Assembly (NCBI GenBank): GCA_001314845.1
Contig: LJZQ01000005.1
Coordinates: forward strand, 107,755-171,754
DNA: 64,000 bases
Direction of reading: 5' to 3'
DNA from: Marinobacter excellens HL-55
Lineage (GTDB): Bacteria; Pseudomonadota; Gammaproteobacteria; Pseudomonadales; Oleiphilaceae
Made by a program: the position numbers and the translations under genes. The notes under the pieces were generated by a model. That model was not told the DNA's origin, searched no databases, and saw only the letters and a list, made by a program, of their open reading frames with translations. Shown here one piece after another: positions 4,664 to 17,503 of this stretch (positions are counted from its first letter, which is position 1; every line of letters begins with the position of its first letter).

Positions 4664-4682
4664 ACGATGAAGAGGGTGACGC

Positions 4683-6788
4683 ATGGCCTTTGATGCCGAC
4701 GAAGAGATTCTGCAGGACTTCCTGGTTGAAGCCGGCGAGATTCTCGAAAAGCTGTCTGAGCAATTGGTGGATCTGGAGCGACATCCGGATGACAGCGATC
4801 TGCTCAATGCCATCTTCCGTGGTTTCCACACGGTAAAAGGCGGTGCCGGCTTCCTGCAGTTGGAGGCACTGGTCAATTGCTGTCACTCTGCTGAAAACGT
4901 TTTTGATATTCTGCGCAATCACAAGCGCAAGGTAACCTCTGAGTTGATGGACGTAGTGCTTGAAGCCCTGGACTACGTCAACACCATGTTTGATCAGGTG
5001 CGTAACCAGGAAGAGCCAACACCCGCCCCGGACGCCCTGATTGCGGCACTGGATGCCCTGGCCAAACCTGAATCTGAAAATGCAGCTCCTGCGCAGAGCA
5101 AAAGCCACCCTGAGCCAGAGGCGGACACCGCTGGCGGCGAGGGTGACTCCGGCGACATCACTGACGAAGAGTTTGAGCGCTTGCTTGATGCCCTGGCTGA
5201 TGACAAGGACGCAAGCACAACACCGGATGTCAGTCCGGAAGCCCCGGTTGCCAGTGATGAAAGCTCGGGCAGTGATGAGATCTCCGATGACGAGTTTGAA
5301 GCCTTGCTTGATCAGCTGCACGGCAAAGGCCAGTTTGCGGGACCGCCCGTCGCGGAGGACGGAACTGATGGGGTCGCCAGTAACGACAGTGCGCAAACCG
5401 AAGAGCCGGCTGGTGATCCGAATCTGATCACCGACGACGAATTTGAAAATCTGCTGGATGAACTGCACGGCAAAGGCAAGAGCCCGAACGCTTCCGGTGC
5501 CGAGCCGACACCGGCAGACAAACCCAAAGCGAGCGCCAAGCCAAAGCCAGAAGCGGCCAAGCCTGAGCCGAAAGCTGCCAGCAAGCCAGCCGCACCGGCA
5601 GCGCCACCGAGAGACGCGGCACCGGTTGCGGAAACCACCGTTCGGGTCGATACCAAGCGCCTCGACGACATCATGAACATGGTTGGCGAGCTGGTACTGG
5701 TCCGTAACCGCTTGCAGCGCCTGGGTTCAGAGAGTGAAGATGAACACATGCACAAGGCGGTCGGTAACCTGGATGTGGTGACGACCGATTTGCAGGCGGC
5801 GGTGATGCAAACCCGCATGCAGCCCATCAAAAAGGTATTTGGCCGGTTCCCCAGAGTTGTCCGGGATCTGGCTCGCGGCCTGAAAAAAGAAATCAATCTG
5901 GTCATGCATGGTGAAGAAACCGATCTCGACAAGAATCTGGTCGAAGCCTTGTCTGATCCACTGGTCCATCTGGTGCGCAACTCGGTGGATCACGGTATCG
6001 AAGGTCCGGATGTTCGGGAAAAGGCCGGTAAGCCCCGCGCCGGTACCGTGACCCTGTCGGCTGAGCAGGAGGGTGATCACATTCTGCTGTCGATCACCGA
6101 TGATGGTGCCGGTATGGATCCGAATGTGCTGCGCCGTAAGGCGGTTGAAAAAGGTCTGTACGATCAGGATGCCGCCGACCGACTGACGGACAACGAATGC
6201 TTTAACCTGATTTTTGCCGCCGGTTTCTCGACCAAAGAGCAGATATCCGACGTGTCTGGTCGGGGCGTTGGTATGGATGTGGTTAAAACCAAGATTGGCC
6301 AGCTCAACGGCCAGATTACCATCGAGTCGGAACAGGGCAAGGGCACCAGCATCATTATCAAGGTGCCGCTCACGCTCGCCATCATGCCCACGCTGATGAT
6401 CATGCTGGGTGATCAGTCTTTCGCGTTACCGTTGGTGAACGTGGTAGAAATTTTCCATCTGGATCTGACCAAGACCAACATTGTGGATGGTCGTGAATGC
6501 ATCGTTGTCCGTGACAAGGTGTTCCCGCTGTTTCACGTCAAGCGCTGGCTGATCAAAGGCTCTGCCGGTCAGCAAGAGCCGGAAAACGCCCATGTGGTCA
6601 TTGTTGCCATGGGCACCAAGCAGGTCGGCTTTGTGGTAGACCAACTGGTCGGCCAGGAGGAAGTGGTTATCAAACCACTGGGTCGGGCGTTGCAAGGTAC
6701 GCCGGGCATGGCCGGCGCCACGATTACCGGTGATGGTCGCATAGCCTTGATCATCGATGTGCCCAGTCTCTTGCAACATTATGGCTAG
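4683..6788 (+). CDS. cheA: Chemotaxis histidine kinase CheA
   Basis: Hpt IFRGFHTVKGGAG, dimerisation VRVDTKRLD, HLVRNSVDHG, GRGVGMDVV, C-terminal CheW-like domain. Confidence 0.98.
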   Translation: MAFDADEEILQDFLVEAGEILEKLSEQLVDLERHPDDSDLLNAIFRGFHTVKGGAGFLQLEALVNCCHSAENVFDILRNHKRKVTSELMDVVLEALDYVNTMFDQVRNQEEPTPAPDALIAALDALAKPESENAAPAQSKSHPEPEADTAGGEGDSGDITDEEFERLLDALADDKDASTTPDVSPEAPVASDESSGSDEISDDEFEALLDQLHGKGQFAGPPVAEDGTDGVASNDSAQTEEPAGDPNLITDDEFENLLDELHGKGKSPNASGAEPTPADKPKASAKPKPEAAKPEPKAASKPAAPAAPPRDAAPVAETTVRVDTKRLDDIMNMVGELVLVRNRLQRLGSESEDEHMHKAVGNLDVVTTDLQAAVMQTRMQPIKKVFGRFPRVVRDLARGLKKEINLVMHGEETDLDKNLVEALSDPLVHLVRNSVDHGIEGPDVREKAGKPRAGTVTLSAEQEGDHILLSITDDGAGMDPNVLRRKAVEKGLYDQDAADRLTDNECFNLIFAAGFSTKEQISDVSGRGVGMDVVKTKIGQLNGQITIESEQGKGTSIIIKVPLTLAIMPTLMIMLGDQSFALPLVNVVEIFHLDLTKTNIVDGRECIVVRDKVFPLFHVKRWLIKGSAGQQEPENAHVVIVAMGTKQVGFVVDQLVGQEEVVIKPLGRALQGTPGMAGATITGDGRIALIIDVPSLLQHYG

Positions 6789-12013: not shown

Positions 12014-12406
12014 ATGAGCTTTACCATTCCTTCCTGGCTTCCCTGGAGCCTGACTGCCCTCGCCATTGGCCTGGTGTTACTGCAAAGCCTCAGTCATGGC
12101 CGGCAGATTAAAGCCCTGCGTGGGTCTCTCAAAGATCGTTGCGACACGCTTGGCCGTGAGCTCCATGCCACGACGAGCGGCAGCATGGGAGTGGGGCAGC
12201 GGCTGGTGGCGTGCGAGCGTCAGCTTCATGAGTTACGTAATTCCCTCGATGAAATGCGGCAGAACGACCCGCTCCGGATTTCCTACGACGAAGCCGCGCG
12301 GCTGGTTGATCTTGGCGCCGATATCGACGATCTTATGAATACCTGCGGGATCTCCCGCCCCGAGGCCGAACTGGTTTCCGCGCTCAAGAAACGTCAGGCG
12401 GCCTGA
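12014..12406 (+). CDS. DUF2802-family membrane-anchored protein
   Basis: N-terminal TM helix, coiled region, C-terminal YDEAARLVDLGADIDDLMNTCGISRPEAEL; usual position after cheW. Confidence 0.85.
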   Translation: MSFTIPSWLPWSLTALAIGLVLLQSLSHGRQIKALRGSLKDRCDTLGRELHATTSGSMGVGQRLVACERQLHELRNSLDEMRQNDPLRISYDEAARLVDLGADIDDLMNTCGISRPEAELVSALKKRQAA

Positions 12407-12432
12407 TCCGAGGATTTAGCGGACGCTGCTGT

Positions 12433-14709
12433 ATGAAAACACTCTATCCGAGGGCCTTCGAGGCCCTCAATGCGGTGAACCGGCAGGACTATGTCTCCGG
12501 TGCTGATATTGCCCCTTCCATTACCGGCCACTCCATTCCCCGGGAAGAAACCGTGCAGCACCTGCTGGCGCTTTGCCCGGAGATTGAGCCGGATCACGTG
12601 ATTATGCATGTAGGCGGCGGTTCCGGTTATCTCACAGCGGTACTGGCCGAGCTGGCGCATAGGGTGCTCTATGTTGATCGCAATCCGGTTGTTGCCGAGA
12701 AGGCTCGGGAACGATTCTTCAAGGGTGGTAAACATAATGTTGATGTGATTTCGGCGGCCGTCGATGAAGGTGTACCGGCGGATGAGCTCTGCGATTTGAT
12801 TATTTGCACTACCTTTCTGTCCGATCCTTCTGTGCTGATTACGTCTATGCGGGATGGTGGCAGGTTGGTGTGCCTCGAAGGCCGGGCCGGGCCGGTACCC
12901 AGTCTGGCCATGTTCCGGCGGACTGGCATCAAACTCGAAAGACTGCGAACGCTGGGTTGGGTGGATTTTAACCGTAATGCCGAGCAGATACTGATCGATC
13001 TCGGATTGGTTAACGACGCCGTACTTGCCGAGGCAAGGGCTGAGGCGGCAGGTAAGAACGAGCGGGTTCTGGACGTGGTTCGGCGCAAACTGAATCTTGA
13101 AGAGATAGATCTGTACCGATCTCTGGCTCAGCAGCGTGGCATGATCTTTACCGATGCCGACGAAGTCCTGGCCAGCCTTCAATCAGAGTTGTTCCGGCGC
13201 TTTTCCCGTACTTTTCTAGATCTGTCGCGGATTATACCCGTGGCGGAGGAAGATGGTGGCCTGACGGTGGTCACCGATGATCCTGACGTCCATACCGATC
13301 AGCTTGAGCGGCTCACGCCCAATCACAAAATCACTTGCTTGCTGGTAACGCCGTCGGACTTTCGCAGAATTTGGTCGGCGCTGGATCTGACCGTAAAAGG
13401 TAGTCACTTTGCTGCTGAACATGGCAAAACCCCGCCTCAGAATGATGCAAACCTTACCAAGAATTTGCTGGTTGAAGACCGGGGTAACAAAAATATAAGT
13501 CCTTACCTGGTCTCGGTCTATGAGGCAATCCTGCTGGATGCGGTCAGTGAAAAAGCCAGCGATATTCACATCGAACAATATGAGAATCGTGTTCGAATTC
13601 GTCTCAGGGTTGATGGTGATCTGCATGATTTGCCTCAGTACCAGTTGTCCGCCCGAGAGATTCGGGGCGTTATAAACGTTATTAAGCTGCGGGCGGAACT
13701 CAATATAGCCGAGCATCGTTTACCCCAGGGTGGCCGTTCCCGTCTTCAGCTGGGCGACACCTCATATGATCTGAGGGTTCAGACCCAACCGTCGTTACAC
13801 GGCGAAAATGCCATTATCCGATTGCTGCCCCAGACAGGTCGGGCTATGACCATCGCCGAACTGGGTATGTCGCCGGCCATAGGCGCCCGGTATCAGCGAC
13901 TGCTGGATAACCCGGCGGGCCTCGTGCTGGTGGTCGGGCCGACTGGCTCCGGAAAATCCACCACTCTCTATGCTGGTTTGCAGACTTTGGCTGATGATGG
14001 GAACCGTAAGGTGATCACGGTCGAAGACCCCATTGAGTACTCCATTGAAAATATTCAGCAGACTCGGGTGCGTTCGGAAATCGGTTTCAGCTTTGCTGAT
14101 TCCATGCGGTCATTCGTGCGGGAAGATCCTGATGTCATCCTCGTGGGCGAAATCCGCGATCAGGAGACTGCGCTGGAAGCGATTCGCGCGTCACAGACCG
14201 GGCATGTGGTGTTGTCGACGCTACATTGTAACGACGCCGTGGATTCGCTTCAGCGTCTTTACGATCTGGGTGTTCACCCGAACTCCATTGCTGGAGAGTT
14301 GCTGGCGGTGATTGCCCAGCGCCTGGCTAAACGTATCTGCAAGCACTGCCGTAAACCTGCCAGACCTGATCCGGCAATTCTGGCCGAAGTGTTTCCCGAC
14401 GGCGCTCCGGCCAATTTCCGGTGCTTTTCCGGTGCAGGCTGTGACAAGTGCAATGGCCGGGGGACCCAAGGTCGGGTTGGCATCGTCGAATATTTAGAGG
14501 TGAACACCGATATTCGAAACGCCATTTCCAGTCAGCCGCCAATTGGTGAGTTGCGTTGGCGAGCTCTGGACGCCGGTCTGGTTACAATGAGAGACAGTGC
14601 ATTGGACCATGTCATCGAGGGTATTATCCCGTTGTCGGAGCTGCCGCGCATTCTCCCCAGAGAGCGAATGGCGCCGGAAGTTCGTGGCGGCCGCAGGAGT
14701 CATGAATGA
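12433..14709 (+). CDS. Fusion protein: PCMT-like methyltransferase domain + MshEN/T2SSE_N-like domain + GspE/PilB-type traffic ATPase
   Basis: aa1-179 align by eye to Pcm (HVGGGSGYLTAVLAEL, VDR, HNV, GGRLV); ATPase has ASDIHIE, RVDG, QGGR, Walker A GPTGSGKST, Asp box TVEDPIEY, Walker B DPDVILVGEIRD, His box GHVVLSTLH, CxxC...CxxC. Confidence 0.9.
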   Translation: MKTLYPRAFEALNAVNRQDYVSGADIAPSITGHSIPREETVQHLLALCPEIEPDHVIMHVGGGSGYLTAVLAELAHRVLYVDRNPVVAEKARERFFKGGKHNVDVISAAVDEGVPADELCDLIICTTFLSDPSVLITSMRDGGRLVCLEGRAGPVPSLAMFRRTGIKLERLRTLGWVDFNRNAEQILIDLGLVNDAVLAEARAEAAGKNERVLDVVRRKLNLEEIDLYRSLAQQRGMIFTDADEVLASLQSELFRRFSRTFLDLSRIIPVAEEDGGLTVVTDDPDVHTDQLERLTPNHKITCLLVTPSDFRRIWSALDLTVKGSHFAAEHGKTPPQNDANLTKNLLVEDRGNKNISPYLVSVYEAILLDAVSEKASDIHIEQYENRVRIRLRVDGDLHDLPQYQLSAREIRGVINVIKLRAELNIAEHRLPQGGRSRLQLGDTSYDLRVQTQPSLHGENAIIRLLPQTGRAMTIAELGMSPAIGARYQRLLDNPAGLVLVVGPTGSGKSTTLYAGLQTLADDGNRKVITVEDPIEYSIENIQQTRVRSEIGFSFADSMRSFVREDPDVILVGEIRDQETALEAIRASQTGHVVLSTLHCNDAVDSLQRLYDLGVHPNSIAGELLAVIAQRLAKRICKHCRKPARPDPAILAEVFPDGAPANFRCFSGAGCDKCNGRGTQGRVGIVEYLEVNTDIRNAISSQPPIGELRWRALDAGLVTMRDSALDHVIEGIIPLSELPRILPRERMAPEVRGGRRSHE

Positions 14710-15809
14710 AACCCAGTAAAGCTACAATGCGCGCCGCTCAGCGGGAACCGGCCGAAGTAACCTACCGGGAAGAGCTCGATAGACTGATATCGTTGGATCC
14801 CGGTCCGGTCCCGCCCGGCTGGCAAATGTCGCCGCGTGGTGTCGAGAAATTTCTGCTTGGTGACGAAAAGCTGGGCATCGAACGCAAGTTCGTGGCCGAT
14901 CGTGCCATGGTAGTTCGCATTATTATTTCGCTCTGTACCAGCCGGGGCTGCTTGCTGGTTGGCGAGCCGGGCACGGCAAAGTCCTGGCTGTCGGAACTTC
15001 TGGCGGCGGCGATCTCGGGCACTTCCACTCTAACCCTGCAAGGGGGGGCGATCAGCCAGGTCAGCCAGCTCCTGTACAGCTGGAATGAAGCCCTCTTGCA
15101 CACCGAGGGCCCGACCCGAAAAGCTCTGGTGCCGACCCCCTTGCTTCGAGGCATGATGGAAGGGCGACTGGTCCGTTTTGAAGAGATTGCTCGATGCCCC
15201 CAGGCCCTGCAAGATGCCTTGCTTTCGGTTCTATCCGACAGAGTGGTGGTGATTCCTGAGTTGTCGGGTGACGACGGTGTCATTCTGGCTCAGCAAGGAT
15301 TCAATCTGGTGGCCACCTCAAATAGTGTCGACGAGGGCGTTCATCGCATGAGCGCTGCCCTTATGAGGCGGATGAATTTTGAGGAGATCCGGCCGATTCG
15401 TCAGCTGGCTGACGAGATGGACGTGGTATTGCGTGAGGTTGCCAAAGCCAACCGCTGCGCCGGCATTGAAGTTGCGCTGGAGCCGTCGGTGGTTGAAGTG
15501 CTGGTGACGCTGTTTCACGAGTTGCGTAACGGCCAGACCCTGGACGGCAGGAGCACTGACCGGCTTGCAGGGGCTGCGCTGTCAACGGCTGAGGCGGTCT
15601 CCGTTGCCCATGCGGCGAGCCTGAATGCCTGGTATTACGGTCGTGGGGCGATGACAGTGGAGCACCTGATGCATCACATCATCGGCTCGGCGTTAAAAGA
15701 TCAGCCAGACGACCGTCGCCGGCTGAAACACTATTTTGAAACCGCCGTTGCCCCGCGCAAAGGCGAACATTGGCAGCAGGTGTGGGCTCTGCGCTCACTG
15801 ATCAACTGA
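14706..15809 (+). CDS. MoxR-superfamily AAA+ ATPase (YehL-like)
   Basis: PPGWQMSP, Walker A GEPGTAKS, Walker B RFEEIARC, ATSN, SAALMRRMNF, STAEAVS; ATGA overlap with upstream gene. Confidence 0.82.
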   Translation: MKPSKATMRAAQREPAEVTYREELDRLISLDPGPVPPGWQMSPRGVEKFLLGDEKLGIERKFVADRAMVVRIIISLCTSRGCLLVGEPGTAKSWLSELLAAAISGTSTLTLQGGAISQVSQLLYSWNEALLHTEGPTRKALVPTPLLRGMMEGRLVRFEEIARCPQALQDALLSVLSDRVVVIPELSGDDGVILAQQGFNLVATSNSVDEGVHRMSAALMRRMNFEEIRPIRQLADEMDVVLREVAKANRCAGIEVALEPSVVEVLVTLFHELRNGQTLDGRSTDRLAGAALSTAEAVSVAHAASLNAWYYGRGAMTVEHLMHHIIGSALKDQPDDRRRLKHYFETAVAPRKGEHWQQVWALRSLIN

Positions 15810-16109
15810 CGGTTCGGCGGCGGGCCGGGCGTCTCCGGGTGTCCGGCCTCGAATGTGAAAGGCGAAGGCCAGTATTTCCGCTATCACTCTGTACAGCTCT
15901 TCCGGAATCTCTTCATTCAGCGACAACCGGGCCAGAATACCGGCCAGCTCGGCATTTTCGTAAAGTGGTACTTCATGCTCTCTGGCAATCCGGACGATTT
16001 CTTCGGCCAGCTCCCAGGTTCCGGTGGCTGAGATCAGGGGCGCGCGTTCGCCGTCGTATTTCAGGGCGACCGCTGCCGGGATGTGAGTGTTCGTCTGCTT
16101 TTCTGTCAT
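15795..16109 (-). CDS. Stand-alone FlhB cytoplasmic-domain-like protein (EscU/YscU/HrcU family)
   Basis: AVALKYD-GERAP...ATG...AEEIVRIAREHEVPLYEN..L..L....IPEELYRVIAEILAF; start set at the ATG overlapping the upstream stop. Confidence 0.9.
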   Translation of the reverse strand: MTEKQTNTHIPAAVALKYDGERAPLISATGTWELAEEIVRIAREHEVPLYENAELAGILARLSLNEEIPEELYRVIAEILAFAFHIRGRTPGDARPAAEPSVDQ

Positions 16110-17503
16110 GCCTTGGTGTCTACCAGTCGGTGTTCCAGTCGGGTCTGTGTTTGCTGCGGACTGCCCCGTCGGCAATCGAGATCTTTTACCTCAAGCCCCA
16201 GGTCAATCAGGCTTTGCCTGAGTAGCGGCAGTTCCTTATGCACCTGCCTGAGCGTGCTTTGCTTCTCTGCCCAGACTTGCGCGCTGACCGAGGGGTACCG
16301 GAATGACACATCAAAATGCAGCGGGCCCGCCTCATCCAGATCCATCGACAGGGATAGTCGCCATTCGCTGATGGCAGACCGATTTGCGCTGCGGCTGGAT
16401 TCGTCCTCTTGCGGATACTGTTCCAGCCGGAGTTGGGCAATTCTGGGTTCTTGCTGGGGCGTGACCCAGGGCAGTTCAACCAGCAAGGTATTGATGGGGG
16501 TTCCTGGCTCAGCGCCGGCCCTGGCGGTCAGAACCTGACTGTGCAACTGGTTAACCGTGATCCGGTTCAGCATGCCTGCCAGCAGGCGCAAGGTTTGTCC
16601 GACAGAGGCTGCTTCACTGCTGGCCGGAGACTGTGCCGACGTAAGTTGGGGGAACTGCAGCGGCGCTTGCACCAGTTCATGACTGGACAGGGGCGTTAAC
16701 CGGTTGAAGTGATCGGCTCCTTGCCCTTGTGTCGCCAGAAGCGTGCTGACAACGCGTGCCAGGGCTAGTTTCAGGTCGGCGGGGGGCGTGGTGGCCGATC
16801 CGGATTGCAGCAGTCGCGATTCGGCAAAAATACCGCTCTCTGACAACCATTGCCTGACTTGCTGGCCAGCGCCATCAGCCTTGCCGGCGCCCGGTGCCAG
16901 GCCGTCCGATTTAATTAGGCTGTTGAGTAGCACCTGCAGGTTTTCCCGAGCGCCGGCGGGCAGCGGCTGCGGCAGGGCTTGTGAAGGCAGTTGTCCGGGT
17001 TGGGGCTCGAGTTTTACGCCGGTGGTCATGGCTTGCAAGAGCTGGGACAACCCAGCCTGCAGGTTTTGTTGCCATGGCAGTCGTTGGGCCAGGGCGCGGG
17101 CAATGCCGGCATCCTGGCTTGGCGCCAGTTTGCCCATCAGCTGGAGTTCATTACCGGCGCGCATTACTTTGATCAAGTCACCGACGGACAGCTCCTGGGG
17201 CTTCGCCCCGGTGGACACCGCCAGGGTCTGGCCTCGCAATTCAAGAAGCAGTTCGTACCCGCCCCCTCTTTGCTGAAGAATGTCGGCCACCCGTGCCAGT
17301 GTGCTTTCATTTTTGGCAAGACGAAGCTGTGCAAGTTGTTGCTGGGCTGTTTGCAGTGGGTCAGGGCGTTGTGATGAGGTGCCGGCGTCACCGATGTTCG
17401 CGCCGGGCTGAGCGGCGCTGGTCCGGCCGGCAGAGGCGTCGGGCGTCCTGATCGGGGGCTGGCCTTCGTTCAGTTTCATTGTCATTGAATTGATGTCGGG
17501 CAA
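16106..17503 (-). CDS. FliK-like (hook-length-control C-terminal domain) protein; start uncertain (17503/17485/17479)
   Basis: Q/A/P-rich low-complexity body; C-terminal WRLSLSMDLDEAGPLHFDV...LRQSLIDLGLEVKDLDC. Confidence 0.78.
   Translation of the reverse strand: MPDINSMTMKLNEGQPPIRTPDASAGRTSAAQPGANIGDAGTSSQRPDPLQTAQQQLAQLRLAKNESTLARVADILQQRGGGYELLLELRGQTLAVSTGAKPQELSVGDLIKVMRAGNELQLMGKLAPSQDAGIARALAQRLPWQQNLQAGLSQLLQAMTTGVKLEPQPGQLPSQALPQPLPAGARENLQVLLNSLIKSDGLAPGAGKADGAGQQVRQWLSESGIFAESRLLQSGSATTPPADLKLALARVVSTLLATQGQGADHFNRLTPLSSHELVQAPLQFPQLTSAQSPASSEAASVGQTLRLLAGMLNRITVNQLHSQVLTARAGAEPGTPINTLLVELPWVTPQQEPRIAQLRLEQYPQEDESSRSANRSAISEWRLSLSMDLDEAGPLHFDVSFRYPSVSAQVWAEKQSTLRQVHKELPLLRQSLIDLGLEVKDLDCRRGSPQQTQTRLEHRLVDTKA

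Follow-up and report, generated by a model that had tools for sequence, protein, structure and literature searches.

PilB/GspE-type ATPases are understood to be motors that depend on pilins and on a platform of their own, and the characterised MoxR ATPases known to us, NorQ and CbbQ, act through a VWA partner. Here we describe a gene pair in a 64,000-nucleotide stretch of the Marinobacter excellens HL-55 genome (contig LJZQ01000005.1; the whole stretch is hereafter called the window) that breaks both expectations. The first gene, A, encodes a fusion of a PIMT-like methyltransferase, an MshEN domain and a PilB/GspE-type ATPase; the second, B, which overlaps the end of A, encodes a MoxR-type AAA+ ATPase of the YehL clade.

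The closest described relatives of protein A are the extension ATPases PilB, MshE and GspE (structures 5tsg, 3jc8, 4ksr and 6f8l). Protein A has the same N1, N2 and C-terminal ATPase domains, the same Walker and His boxes and the same tetracysteine site, but it adds a PIMT-like head, is without the canonical cyclic di-GMP (c-di-GMP) motif, forms a separate clade and has no platform, pilin or prepilin peptidase gene next to it. It also scores below every named-orthologue cut-off among the equivalog models: 413.6 bits against 630 for GspE, 412.8 against 676 for PilB and 353.4 against 850 for TfpB. TfpB of Acinetobacter baylyi (PMC8213720; reviewed in PMC11656802) provides a precedent for an extra extension ATPase that works on a resident pilus; a comparable action of A on a pilus would be proposed by analogy. 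The same review mentions no motor that carries a methyltransferase or is partnered by an AAA+ protein (PMC11656802).

Protein B has the N-terminal extension, Walker motifs and C-terminal lid of Escherichia coli YehL; it differs from the yeh locus in that its upstream partner is a PilB-type fusion and in that no DUF5682, VWA, SWIM, DUF4132 or DUF5691 gene accompanies it. Our literature search found no paper on the yeh locus. The nearest solved folds to B belong to the NorQ-NorD and CbbQ-CbbO systems (9qh4-9qhg, 6l1q), in which hexameric MoxR ATPases remodel a specific partner; both use a VWA adaptor, whereas none is encoded at the pair, and B is 17-19% identical to these ATPases. Genes for thaumarchaeal MoxR/GvpN ATPases with vWA proteins show a genomic association with type IV filament ATPase systems, in a role predicted to be regulatory (PMC4858521); those pairs, however, are archaeal, include a vWA protein and lie inside complete pilus loci, whereas A and B are bacterial and are found without vWA or pilus genes. 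Finally, the head of A shares with Pcm/PIMT (1jg1, 3lbf) the fold family, the S-adenosylmethionine (AdoMet) motif I and the Ser-x-Pro and GG-x-L elements, but it is very divergent, is joined to a motor ATPase and, in the branch to which the window belongs, has lost region II. The components thus come from known families, whereas their combination and the clade that it forms are undescribed: a full-text literature search, which included a recent review of PilB cofactors, found neither the fusion nor the pairing, and the earlier claim of an undescribed pair therefore stands for the searchable literature.

A self-contained two-gene cassette

We searched for B in one genome per species and kept the best 80 of 177 loci, in which B is at least 64% identical to the query; these loci span at least seven genera (Marinobacter, Pseudomonas, Halopseudomonas salina, Alkalimonas, Porticoccus, Halomonas and Wenzhouxiangella). 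A gene with the PCMT-MshEN-GspE arrangement of A lies directly upstream of B, on the same strand, in 79 of the 80. In the remaining locus (L099, from a gammaproteobacterial metagenome-assembled genome), the last 116 residues of A are left at 4664-5011 and B is intact; this locus represents either a decaying copy of A or a chimeric contig. Within the genus, orthologues of A with 77-83% identity occur in 10 of 24 other species, and all ten of the full-length ones adjoin B. Most of the other genera keep the 4-base overlap of stop and start codons, as does a distant pair on a metagenome contig (L132), and it is present even where the N-terminal identity of the pair is only 32%. Clustering of the neighbouring open reading frames (ORFs) at 25 loci of different genera revealed no third common gene beyond A and B.

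These results show that A and B form a self-contained two-gene cassette joined by overlapping stop and start codons, whose recurrence is far beyond chance. The preliminary description of this locus had proposed a dedicated module; that proposal is well supported by the adjacency of the two genes (79 of 80 loci, the other one having a truncated A), by the recurring overlap and by the lack of a third common gene. Transfer of the cassette takes place between genera of the Gammaproteobacteria, and its loss is frequent. Solving the role of the pair would define a function for an orphan clade of traffic ATPases present in several lineages, would open the YehL branch of MoxR ATPases, including the E. 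coli operon, to functional study for the first time, and would reveal either a new form of type IV pilus control or a cytoplasmic role new to the secretion-ATPase fold.

Two further lines were considered and set aside. An apparent A-B fusion, P0093 (a Logan assembly protein of 846 aa with T2SSE and AAA_5 matches), was rejected as evidence of interaction: its junction passes from “...SIAGELLA” of A to “...ELLAAA...” of B at a common ELLA, where A has lost its C-terminus and B its Walker A motif, and to judge from this junction it is probably an in-frame deletion or an assembly chimera. Carriage of the pair on plasmids was rejected as well, because the N-terminal region of A has no match in 72,556 plasmids and none of the B-like plasmid matches reaches 60% identity; the ones looked at more closely are yeh-type proteins or are annotated as AAA family ATPases.

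The fusion itself extends beyond the paired loci. We compared the first 340 residues of A with 1.84 billion representative proteins. Among the matches listed, about 30 representatives (one per 50%-identity cluster) of 713-804 aa cover most of this region, and all ten representatives scanned against Pfam have the PCMT-MshEN-T2SSE architecture. Genomic contexts were checked for seven distant members: one (P0132) has an AAA_5 gene joined to it by a 4-base overlap; around five others, which are orphans, no gene for a MoxR ATPase, a pilin or a platform was seen; and the contig of the last ends early. In a maximum-likelihood tree of the ATPase core, whose reference paralogues come from a single genome and thereby limit the result, the fusions all fall into a single clade (95/96 support), separate from the PilB, MshE, GspE and PilT of that genome. 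The MoxR-paired forms are a nested subclade of this clade, and B is found only there. Because the paired forms nest inside the fusion clade and most of the distant members are orphans, the phylogeny makes it appear that the fusion came first and that the MoxR partner was added later, in one branch.

The most distant MoxR-paired member is the L132 pair (metagenome contig ERR12074358_35532). Directly upstream of it, at 89-1153 on the minus strand, lies a divergently oriented gene for a T2SSE ATPase of 354 aa, which looks PilT-like by its size; this is the only case in which another traffic ATPase adjoins the pair.

Domain architecture of the two proteins

The head of protein A matches the Pfam family PCMT (PF01135) over residues 7-147 with 46.5 bits, above the cut-off of 20.3, and stays below the pcm equivalog cut-offs (PRK00312, 67.5 against 188; TIGR00080, 49.8 against 159). 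The AdoMet motif I, GxGxGY, is kept throughout the family: among 23 family members G61 and G65 never vary, and G63 and Y66 hardly do. By profile match and motif I the head is a member of the PIMT family, but it does not belong to the pcm equivalogs, either by score or by region II. The paired clade also keeps G-x-S-x-P, GG-x-L and an acidic residue at the expected end of the second strand; we take G-x-S-x-P, GxGxGY and GG-x-L to correspond to PIMT signature regions. Region II (GDGxxG) is gone in the Marinobacter/Pseudomonas branch, whereas GDGxxGAPxxAPFD is kept in the Porticoccus and Wenzhouxiangella forms. The AlphaFold2 model of the head is a confident Rossmann-type fold.

The nature of the head raises the question of protein repair, in which the PIMT-like domain would recognise isoaspartyl damage and the two ATPases would unfold or refold the damaged client. 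PIMTs are the best family matches of the head, the paired clade conserves the three signature elements, and the Porticoccus and Wenzhouxiangella forms retain region II, all of which would suit such a role. However, the genome has two canonical pcm genes (contig C48, 62372-62980; contig C7, 36675-37268), which score 218 and 202 bits against 48 for the A head, so the head is not the housekeeping repair enzyme; its scores far under the equivalog cut-offs and the loss of region II in the window's own branch speak against repair as well, and we give this explanation very little credence. A possible isoaspartate-prone Asn-Gly site in B, present as RNGQ in each of the 80 B proteins of the pair type but absent from four distant YehL-type proteins, was also examined as a candidate and dropped: E. 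coli YehL has RANGE there, with its Asn-Gly offset by one residue, and 23 positions are equally pair-specific.

Behind the head, the MshEN profile (PF05157) matches residues 249-317 of A with 43.7 bits, and AlphaFold2 models the N1 region as a helical bundle together with an alpha/beta subdomain; the model of A is confident domain by domain, with a disordered linker at residues 329-354. In MshEN domains c-di-GMP is bound through a tandem 24-residue motif, RLGxx(L/V/I)(L/V/I)xxG(L/V/I)(L/V/I)xxxxLxxxLxxQ (PMC5013675). Neither the strict nor a relaxed form of this motif occurs in the 17 pair-type proteins tested, whereas the MshE encoded by the same genome passes the relaxed test.

The ATPase half of A is that of a complete extension-type traffic ATPase. 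T2SSE (PF00437) matches residues 360-737 with 368 bits, and the Walker A region, the acidic boxes, the His-box region and the cysteines C636/C639/C670/C673 are invariant or nearly so in the 23 family members. The best solved relatives of A are PilF, GspE/EpsE and PilB (E values of 1e-85 to 1e-95). Protein A thus has the core motifs, the N1 domain and the tetracysteine zinc site of the extension class; what it does not share with that class is a place beside platform and pilin genes, as no T2SSF gene is present on its contig and the pair has no common neighbour across genera.

Protein B matches AAA_5 (PF07728) over residues 82-223 with 99 bits and is 47.6-47.9% identical to E. coli YehL (annotated as yehL / MoxR family ATPase) over 96% of its length. 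The Walker A motif GEPGTAKS (K92), the acidic pair E159/E160, the sensor 1 residue N206 and the arginine-finger residues R221/R222 are invariant in the B family. Among solved folds, the AlphaFold2 model (pLDDT 84) comes closest to NorQ, CbbQ and the MoxR-like ATPase 2r44. B is therefore a MoxR ATPase by core and fold, and its kinship with YehL, suggested beforehand, is confirmed both by the identity of about 48% and by the DUF5691/DUF4132 loci in which its distant relatives lie. The E. coli locus runs yehI (DUF4132), yehK, yehL, yehM (DUF5682), yehP (VWA), yehQ (SWIM); among the B relatives of about 40% identity in other Gammaproteobacteria, a DUF5691/DUF4132 gene precedes five of seven, and no GspE-like neighbour occurs. 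The yeh-type partners DUF5682, VWA and SWIM are absent from the window and from the common neighbourhood of the pair-type loci.

Possible mechanisms and their rivals

We tentatively favour a joint model, which we regard as plausible and far from secure: A and B would both be active hexameric ATPases; B would remodel A as its dedicated partner and so control how A is assembled, disassembled or activated; and the PIMT-like head would couple the motor to an AdoMet-dependent or protein carboxyl-methylation step. In this arrangement A would stand where the VWA adaptor and its client stand in NorQ/CbbQ/YehL-type systems, and it might either serve, under some conditions, as a second extension motor docked on a resident platform, or act without a filament. 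That both proteins are active enzymes is suggested by the invariance of the catalytic motifs in both families, by two confident AlphaFold2 models and by the closeness of B to the NorQ/CbbQ hexamers.

Platforms for such docking are available in the genome. T2SSF platform genes are present on contigs C15, C47, C16 and C4, with none on the window's contig (C39); GspE, MshE and PilB of the genome each adjoin their own platform gene, and PilT and PilU are also present. At least one T2SSF protein is found in 13 of 13 pair-bearing genomes and a close PilC in 12 of them; in the small genome of Porticoccus litoralis the sole platform gene lies within a pilB-pilC-pilD locus. PilC, the platform of the type IVa pilus, would accordingly be the most widely common docking candidate. 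If A docks at all, the type IVa pilus is the candidate by analogy to the two-motor system of Acinetobacter, in which two extension motors act on one pilus (PMC11656802). A link between MoxR ATPases and filaments has a genomic parallel in archaea, where type IV pilus loci are linked to MoxR/GvpN ATPases with vWA proteins (PMC4858521).

Besides GspE, the genome encodes a fifth GspE-like ATPase on contig C7 (19206-20408, minus strand), which is 36% identical to the core of A and groups with GspE; its N-terminus looks short or miscalled.

Several points weigh against the joint model. The co-presence of PilC says little, because PilC is nearly universal in these bacteria. No VWA gene lies at the pair, though NorQ and CbbQ act with one. 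The interaction of A with B is deduced from the gene arrangement, and P0093, the sole apparent fusion, does not count as evidence for it. After the loss of region II the head may bind AdoMet without catalysing transfer. Moreover, the core function of A would need neither B nor a dedicated filament, because the distant orphans lack both.

The last point leads to a filament-independent explanation, in which the PCMT-MshEN-PilB clade would be a cytoplasmic signalling or remodelling ATPase that senses AdoMet or S-adenosylhomocysteine or methylates a client, and that forms a two-ring complex with the MoxR protein in the gammaproteobacterial branch. It agrees with the orphan state of five of the six distant members, which have no pilin, platform or MoxR gene nearby, with the long, supported branch that parts the fusion clade from canonical PilB, MshE and GspE, and with the fact that the main platforms of the genome each already have an adjacent ATPase; a signalling role of PilB in Myxococcus is indicated by the title of one paper (PMC5544727). 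On the other hand, the full extension-ATPase architecture (N1, N2, C-terminal domain and zinc site) is strongly constrained, as a platform-engaging motor needs, and no client or output domain is identifiable in the fusion. We consider this explanation, the main rival of the joint model, possible though somewhat unlikely. A more specific proposal, that A belongs to a separate class of non-filament motors derived from traffic ATPases and forms, in the gammaproteobacterial branch, a two-ring complex with a VWA-independent MoxR hexamer, with an AdoMet-dependent step (methylation of a client's carboxyl groups, or the sensing of AdoMet or S-adenosylhomocysteine) gating ATP-driven protein remodelling, is in our judgement unlikely.

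The slot between fipA and the flhB-like gene

In the window the cassette occupies a slot between fipA, the last gene of a che/mot cluster, and a convergent gene for the C-terminal domain of FlhB (Table 1). Among 30 Marinobacter species this slot contains the pair in 15 and is empty in 15; in the empty slots the FlhB-like gene directly abuts fipA. Among the filled ones, locus L025 of Marinobacter nauticus DSM 50418, a cultured strain, is arranged as in the window. One empty slot (genome G021, locus L103) follows a fipA whose protein is 95% identical to that of the window. There, homology to the window ends at 12407, and a stretch of about 27 nt that corresponds to the 3' end of B (window 15783-15809) is kept together with about 55 nt without a match in the window. 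Part of the remnant of about 27 nt also spans the end of the flhB-like gene; judged by alignment, the remnant is a probable deletion scar, and the deletion looks recent.

The slot of Marinobacter metalliresistant CuT 6 (G022) has taken up other DNA: a 2.1-kb insert lies between fipA and the pair (L054, 3588-5721), in which we recognised by eye BrnT/BrnA-type and RelE/ParE-type toxin-antitoxin-like ORFs and an IS630-like transposase fragment, and a duplicate of the last 40 codons of fipA stands beside gene A. From such comparisons the slot looks like a permissive insertion site, or an insertion hot spot.

In the window itself the cassette does not look like a newcomer. The GC content of the pair, overall and at third codon positions (GC3), equals that of its flanks, and within Marinobacter the identity of the pair tracks that of the flanks. 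That composition and identity follow the flanks fits old residence with repeated loss in Marinobacter; recent horizontal arrival in this genome is rejected on the match of A and B to the flanking genes in GC and GC3, and the earlier suggestion of a long-resident pair is upheld.

Patchy distribution, transfer between genera, variable contexts and frequent loss are also what might be expected of an anti-phage or conflict system, a two-ATPase sensor/effector cassette gained and lost like defence genes. To these may be added the toxin-antitoxin-like ORFs and the transposase remnant recognised by eye in the G022 slot, a small PLD-like ORF after the pair in another genome (G026), and the multi-gene yeh-type loci, some of them on plasmids, in which relatives of B occur. 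However, no system of PADLOC-DB 2.0 fits: A gives a generic methyltransferase-region match to mad2 (E value of 5.5e-14) and weak P-loop matches, and B gives no meaningful match. Further, no nuclease, TIR, pore or protease effector is encoded at the pair, the N-terminus of A is unmatched among the plasmids searched, composition equals that of the flanks, the pair is syntenic in many Marinobacter species, and its neighbours across genera are housekeeping or varied genes rather than defence islands. We therefore regard defence as improbable.

A further explanation, raised in the preliminary description, is a motility accessory that would act within the chemotaxis/flagellar programme, for example in a swim/attach switch or in polar protein maintenance. 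In the window, as in most of the Marinobacter carriers that have flagella, only about 26-30 bp separate fipA from the pair, which is encoded on the same strand, and read-through from the che operon is likely because the gap has no terminator-like site. DUF2802, the family of the fipA product, is treated in a paper on FipA, a determinant of the polar flagellum (PMC11620751). Against a motility role, the pair is missing from half of the Marinobacter species sampled, in which fipA and the flhB-like gene adjoin; FlhA is absent from five of the 13 pair-bearing genomes (M. pelagius, M. vinifirmus, M. profundi, Porticoccus litoralis and one Wenzhouxiangella genome), which refutes a general requirement; and in the other genera the pair has unrelated surroundings, with no homologue of the window's che or flagellar genes in the 6-8 kb around it. 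The locus of the three Marinobacter species just named has no che or flagellar genes, and the pair adjoins ccm genes; in G026 its neighbours are an MMPL transporter, the small PLD-like ORF and a VIT1 gene.

The pair is always together, also in bacteria without flagella, and its position in the chemotaxis cluster therefore looks incidental; the general tie to chemotaxis and flagella that had been supposed for it is not supported. A motility function is in our view very improbable, and a place at the end of a chemotaxis operon should not be taken as evidence of one.

Table 1. Coordinates, in the window, of the gene pair, its domains and the borders of its slot
Feature	Coordinates	Strand	Basis
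Gene A: PIMT-like methyltransferase-MshEN-PilB/GspE-type ATPase fusion, 758 aa	12433..14709	+	ORF, translation, Pfam
A residues 1-178: divergent PIMT-like class I AdoMet methyltransferase domain	12433..12966	+	PF01135, motif, AlphaFold2 model
A residues 183-330: MshEN/GSPII-type N1 domain, degenerate c-di-GMP motif	12979..13422	+	PF05157, AlphaFold2 model
A residues 357-758: N2 and C-terminal ATPase domains, tetracysteine zinc site	13501..14709	+	T2SSE
A/B stop/start overlap ATGA, 4 bases (translational coupling)	14706..14709	+	Sequence read
Gene B: YehL-clade MoxR-type AAA+ ATPase, 367 aa	14706..15809	+	ORF, Pfam AAA_5
fipA: gene of the FipA family (DUF2802) that ends the che/mot cluster	12014..12406	+	PF10975, 76 bits
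fipA-A spacer, 26 bp; left boundary of the insertion slot	12407..12432	+	Sequence read
FlhB C-terminal-domain-only gene, convergent; right boundary of the slot	15795..16175	-	Bac_export_2, positions 261-334 of 335 matched

The layout given in the preliminary description (the ORF coordinates, the ATGA overlap, the 26-bp gap and the overlap with the convergent FlhB-like gene) was confirmed on the sequence, as was the lack of a neighbouring pilin, platform, VWA, DUF5682 or SWIM gene. Its remark that no terminator is visible is correct for the coding strand of the gap, where a consensus scan found no terminator-like or sigma-70-like site; the opposite strand has a weak terminator-like hairpin at the fipA stop (12406-12394). 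Upstream of A lie cheB, a MotA/MotB pair (motC/D-like), a gene for a ParA-like ATPase, two CheW-domain genes and the DUF2802 gene. Downstream, the 3' end of B overlaps the convergent FlhB-like ORF by 15 bp, and beyond this come, in order, a FliK-like gene and a probable ccmA (ABC ATPase). The FlhB-like protein has 126 aa and consists of the FlhB C-terminal domain only, and its neighbour is a protein of 465 aa with a FliK hook-length-control domain, encoded at 16106-17503 on the minus strand. The FlhB-like and FliK-like genes form a convergent, overlapping pair that is kept 3' of the che cluster in flagellated Marinobacter.

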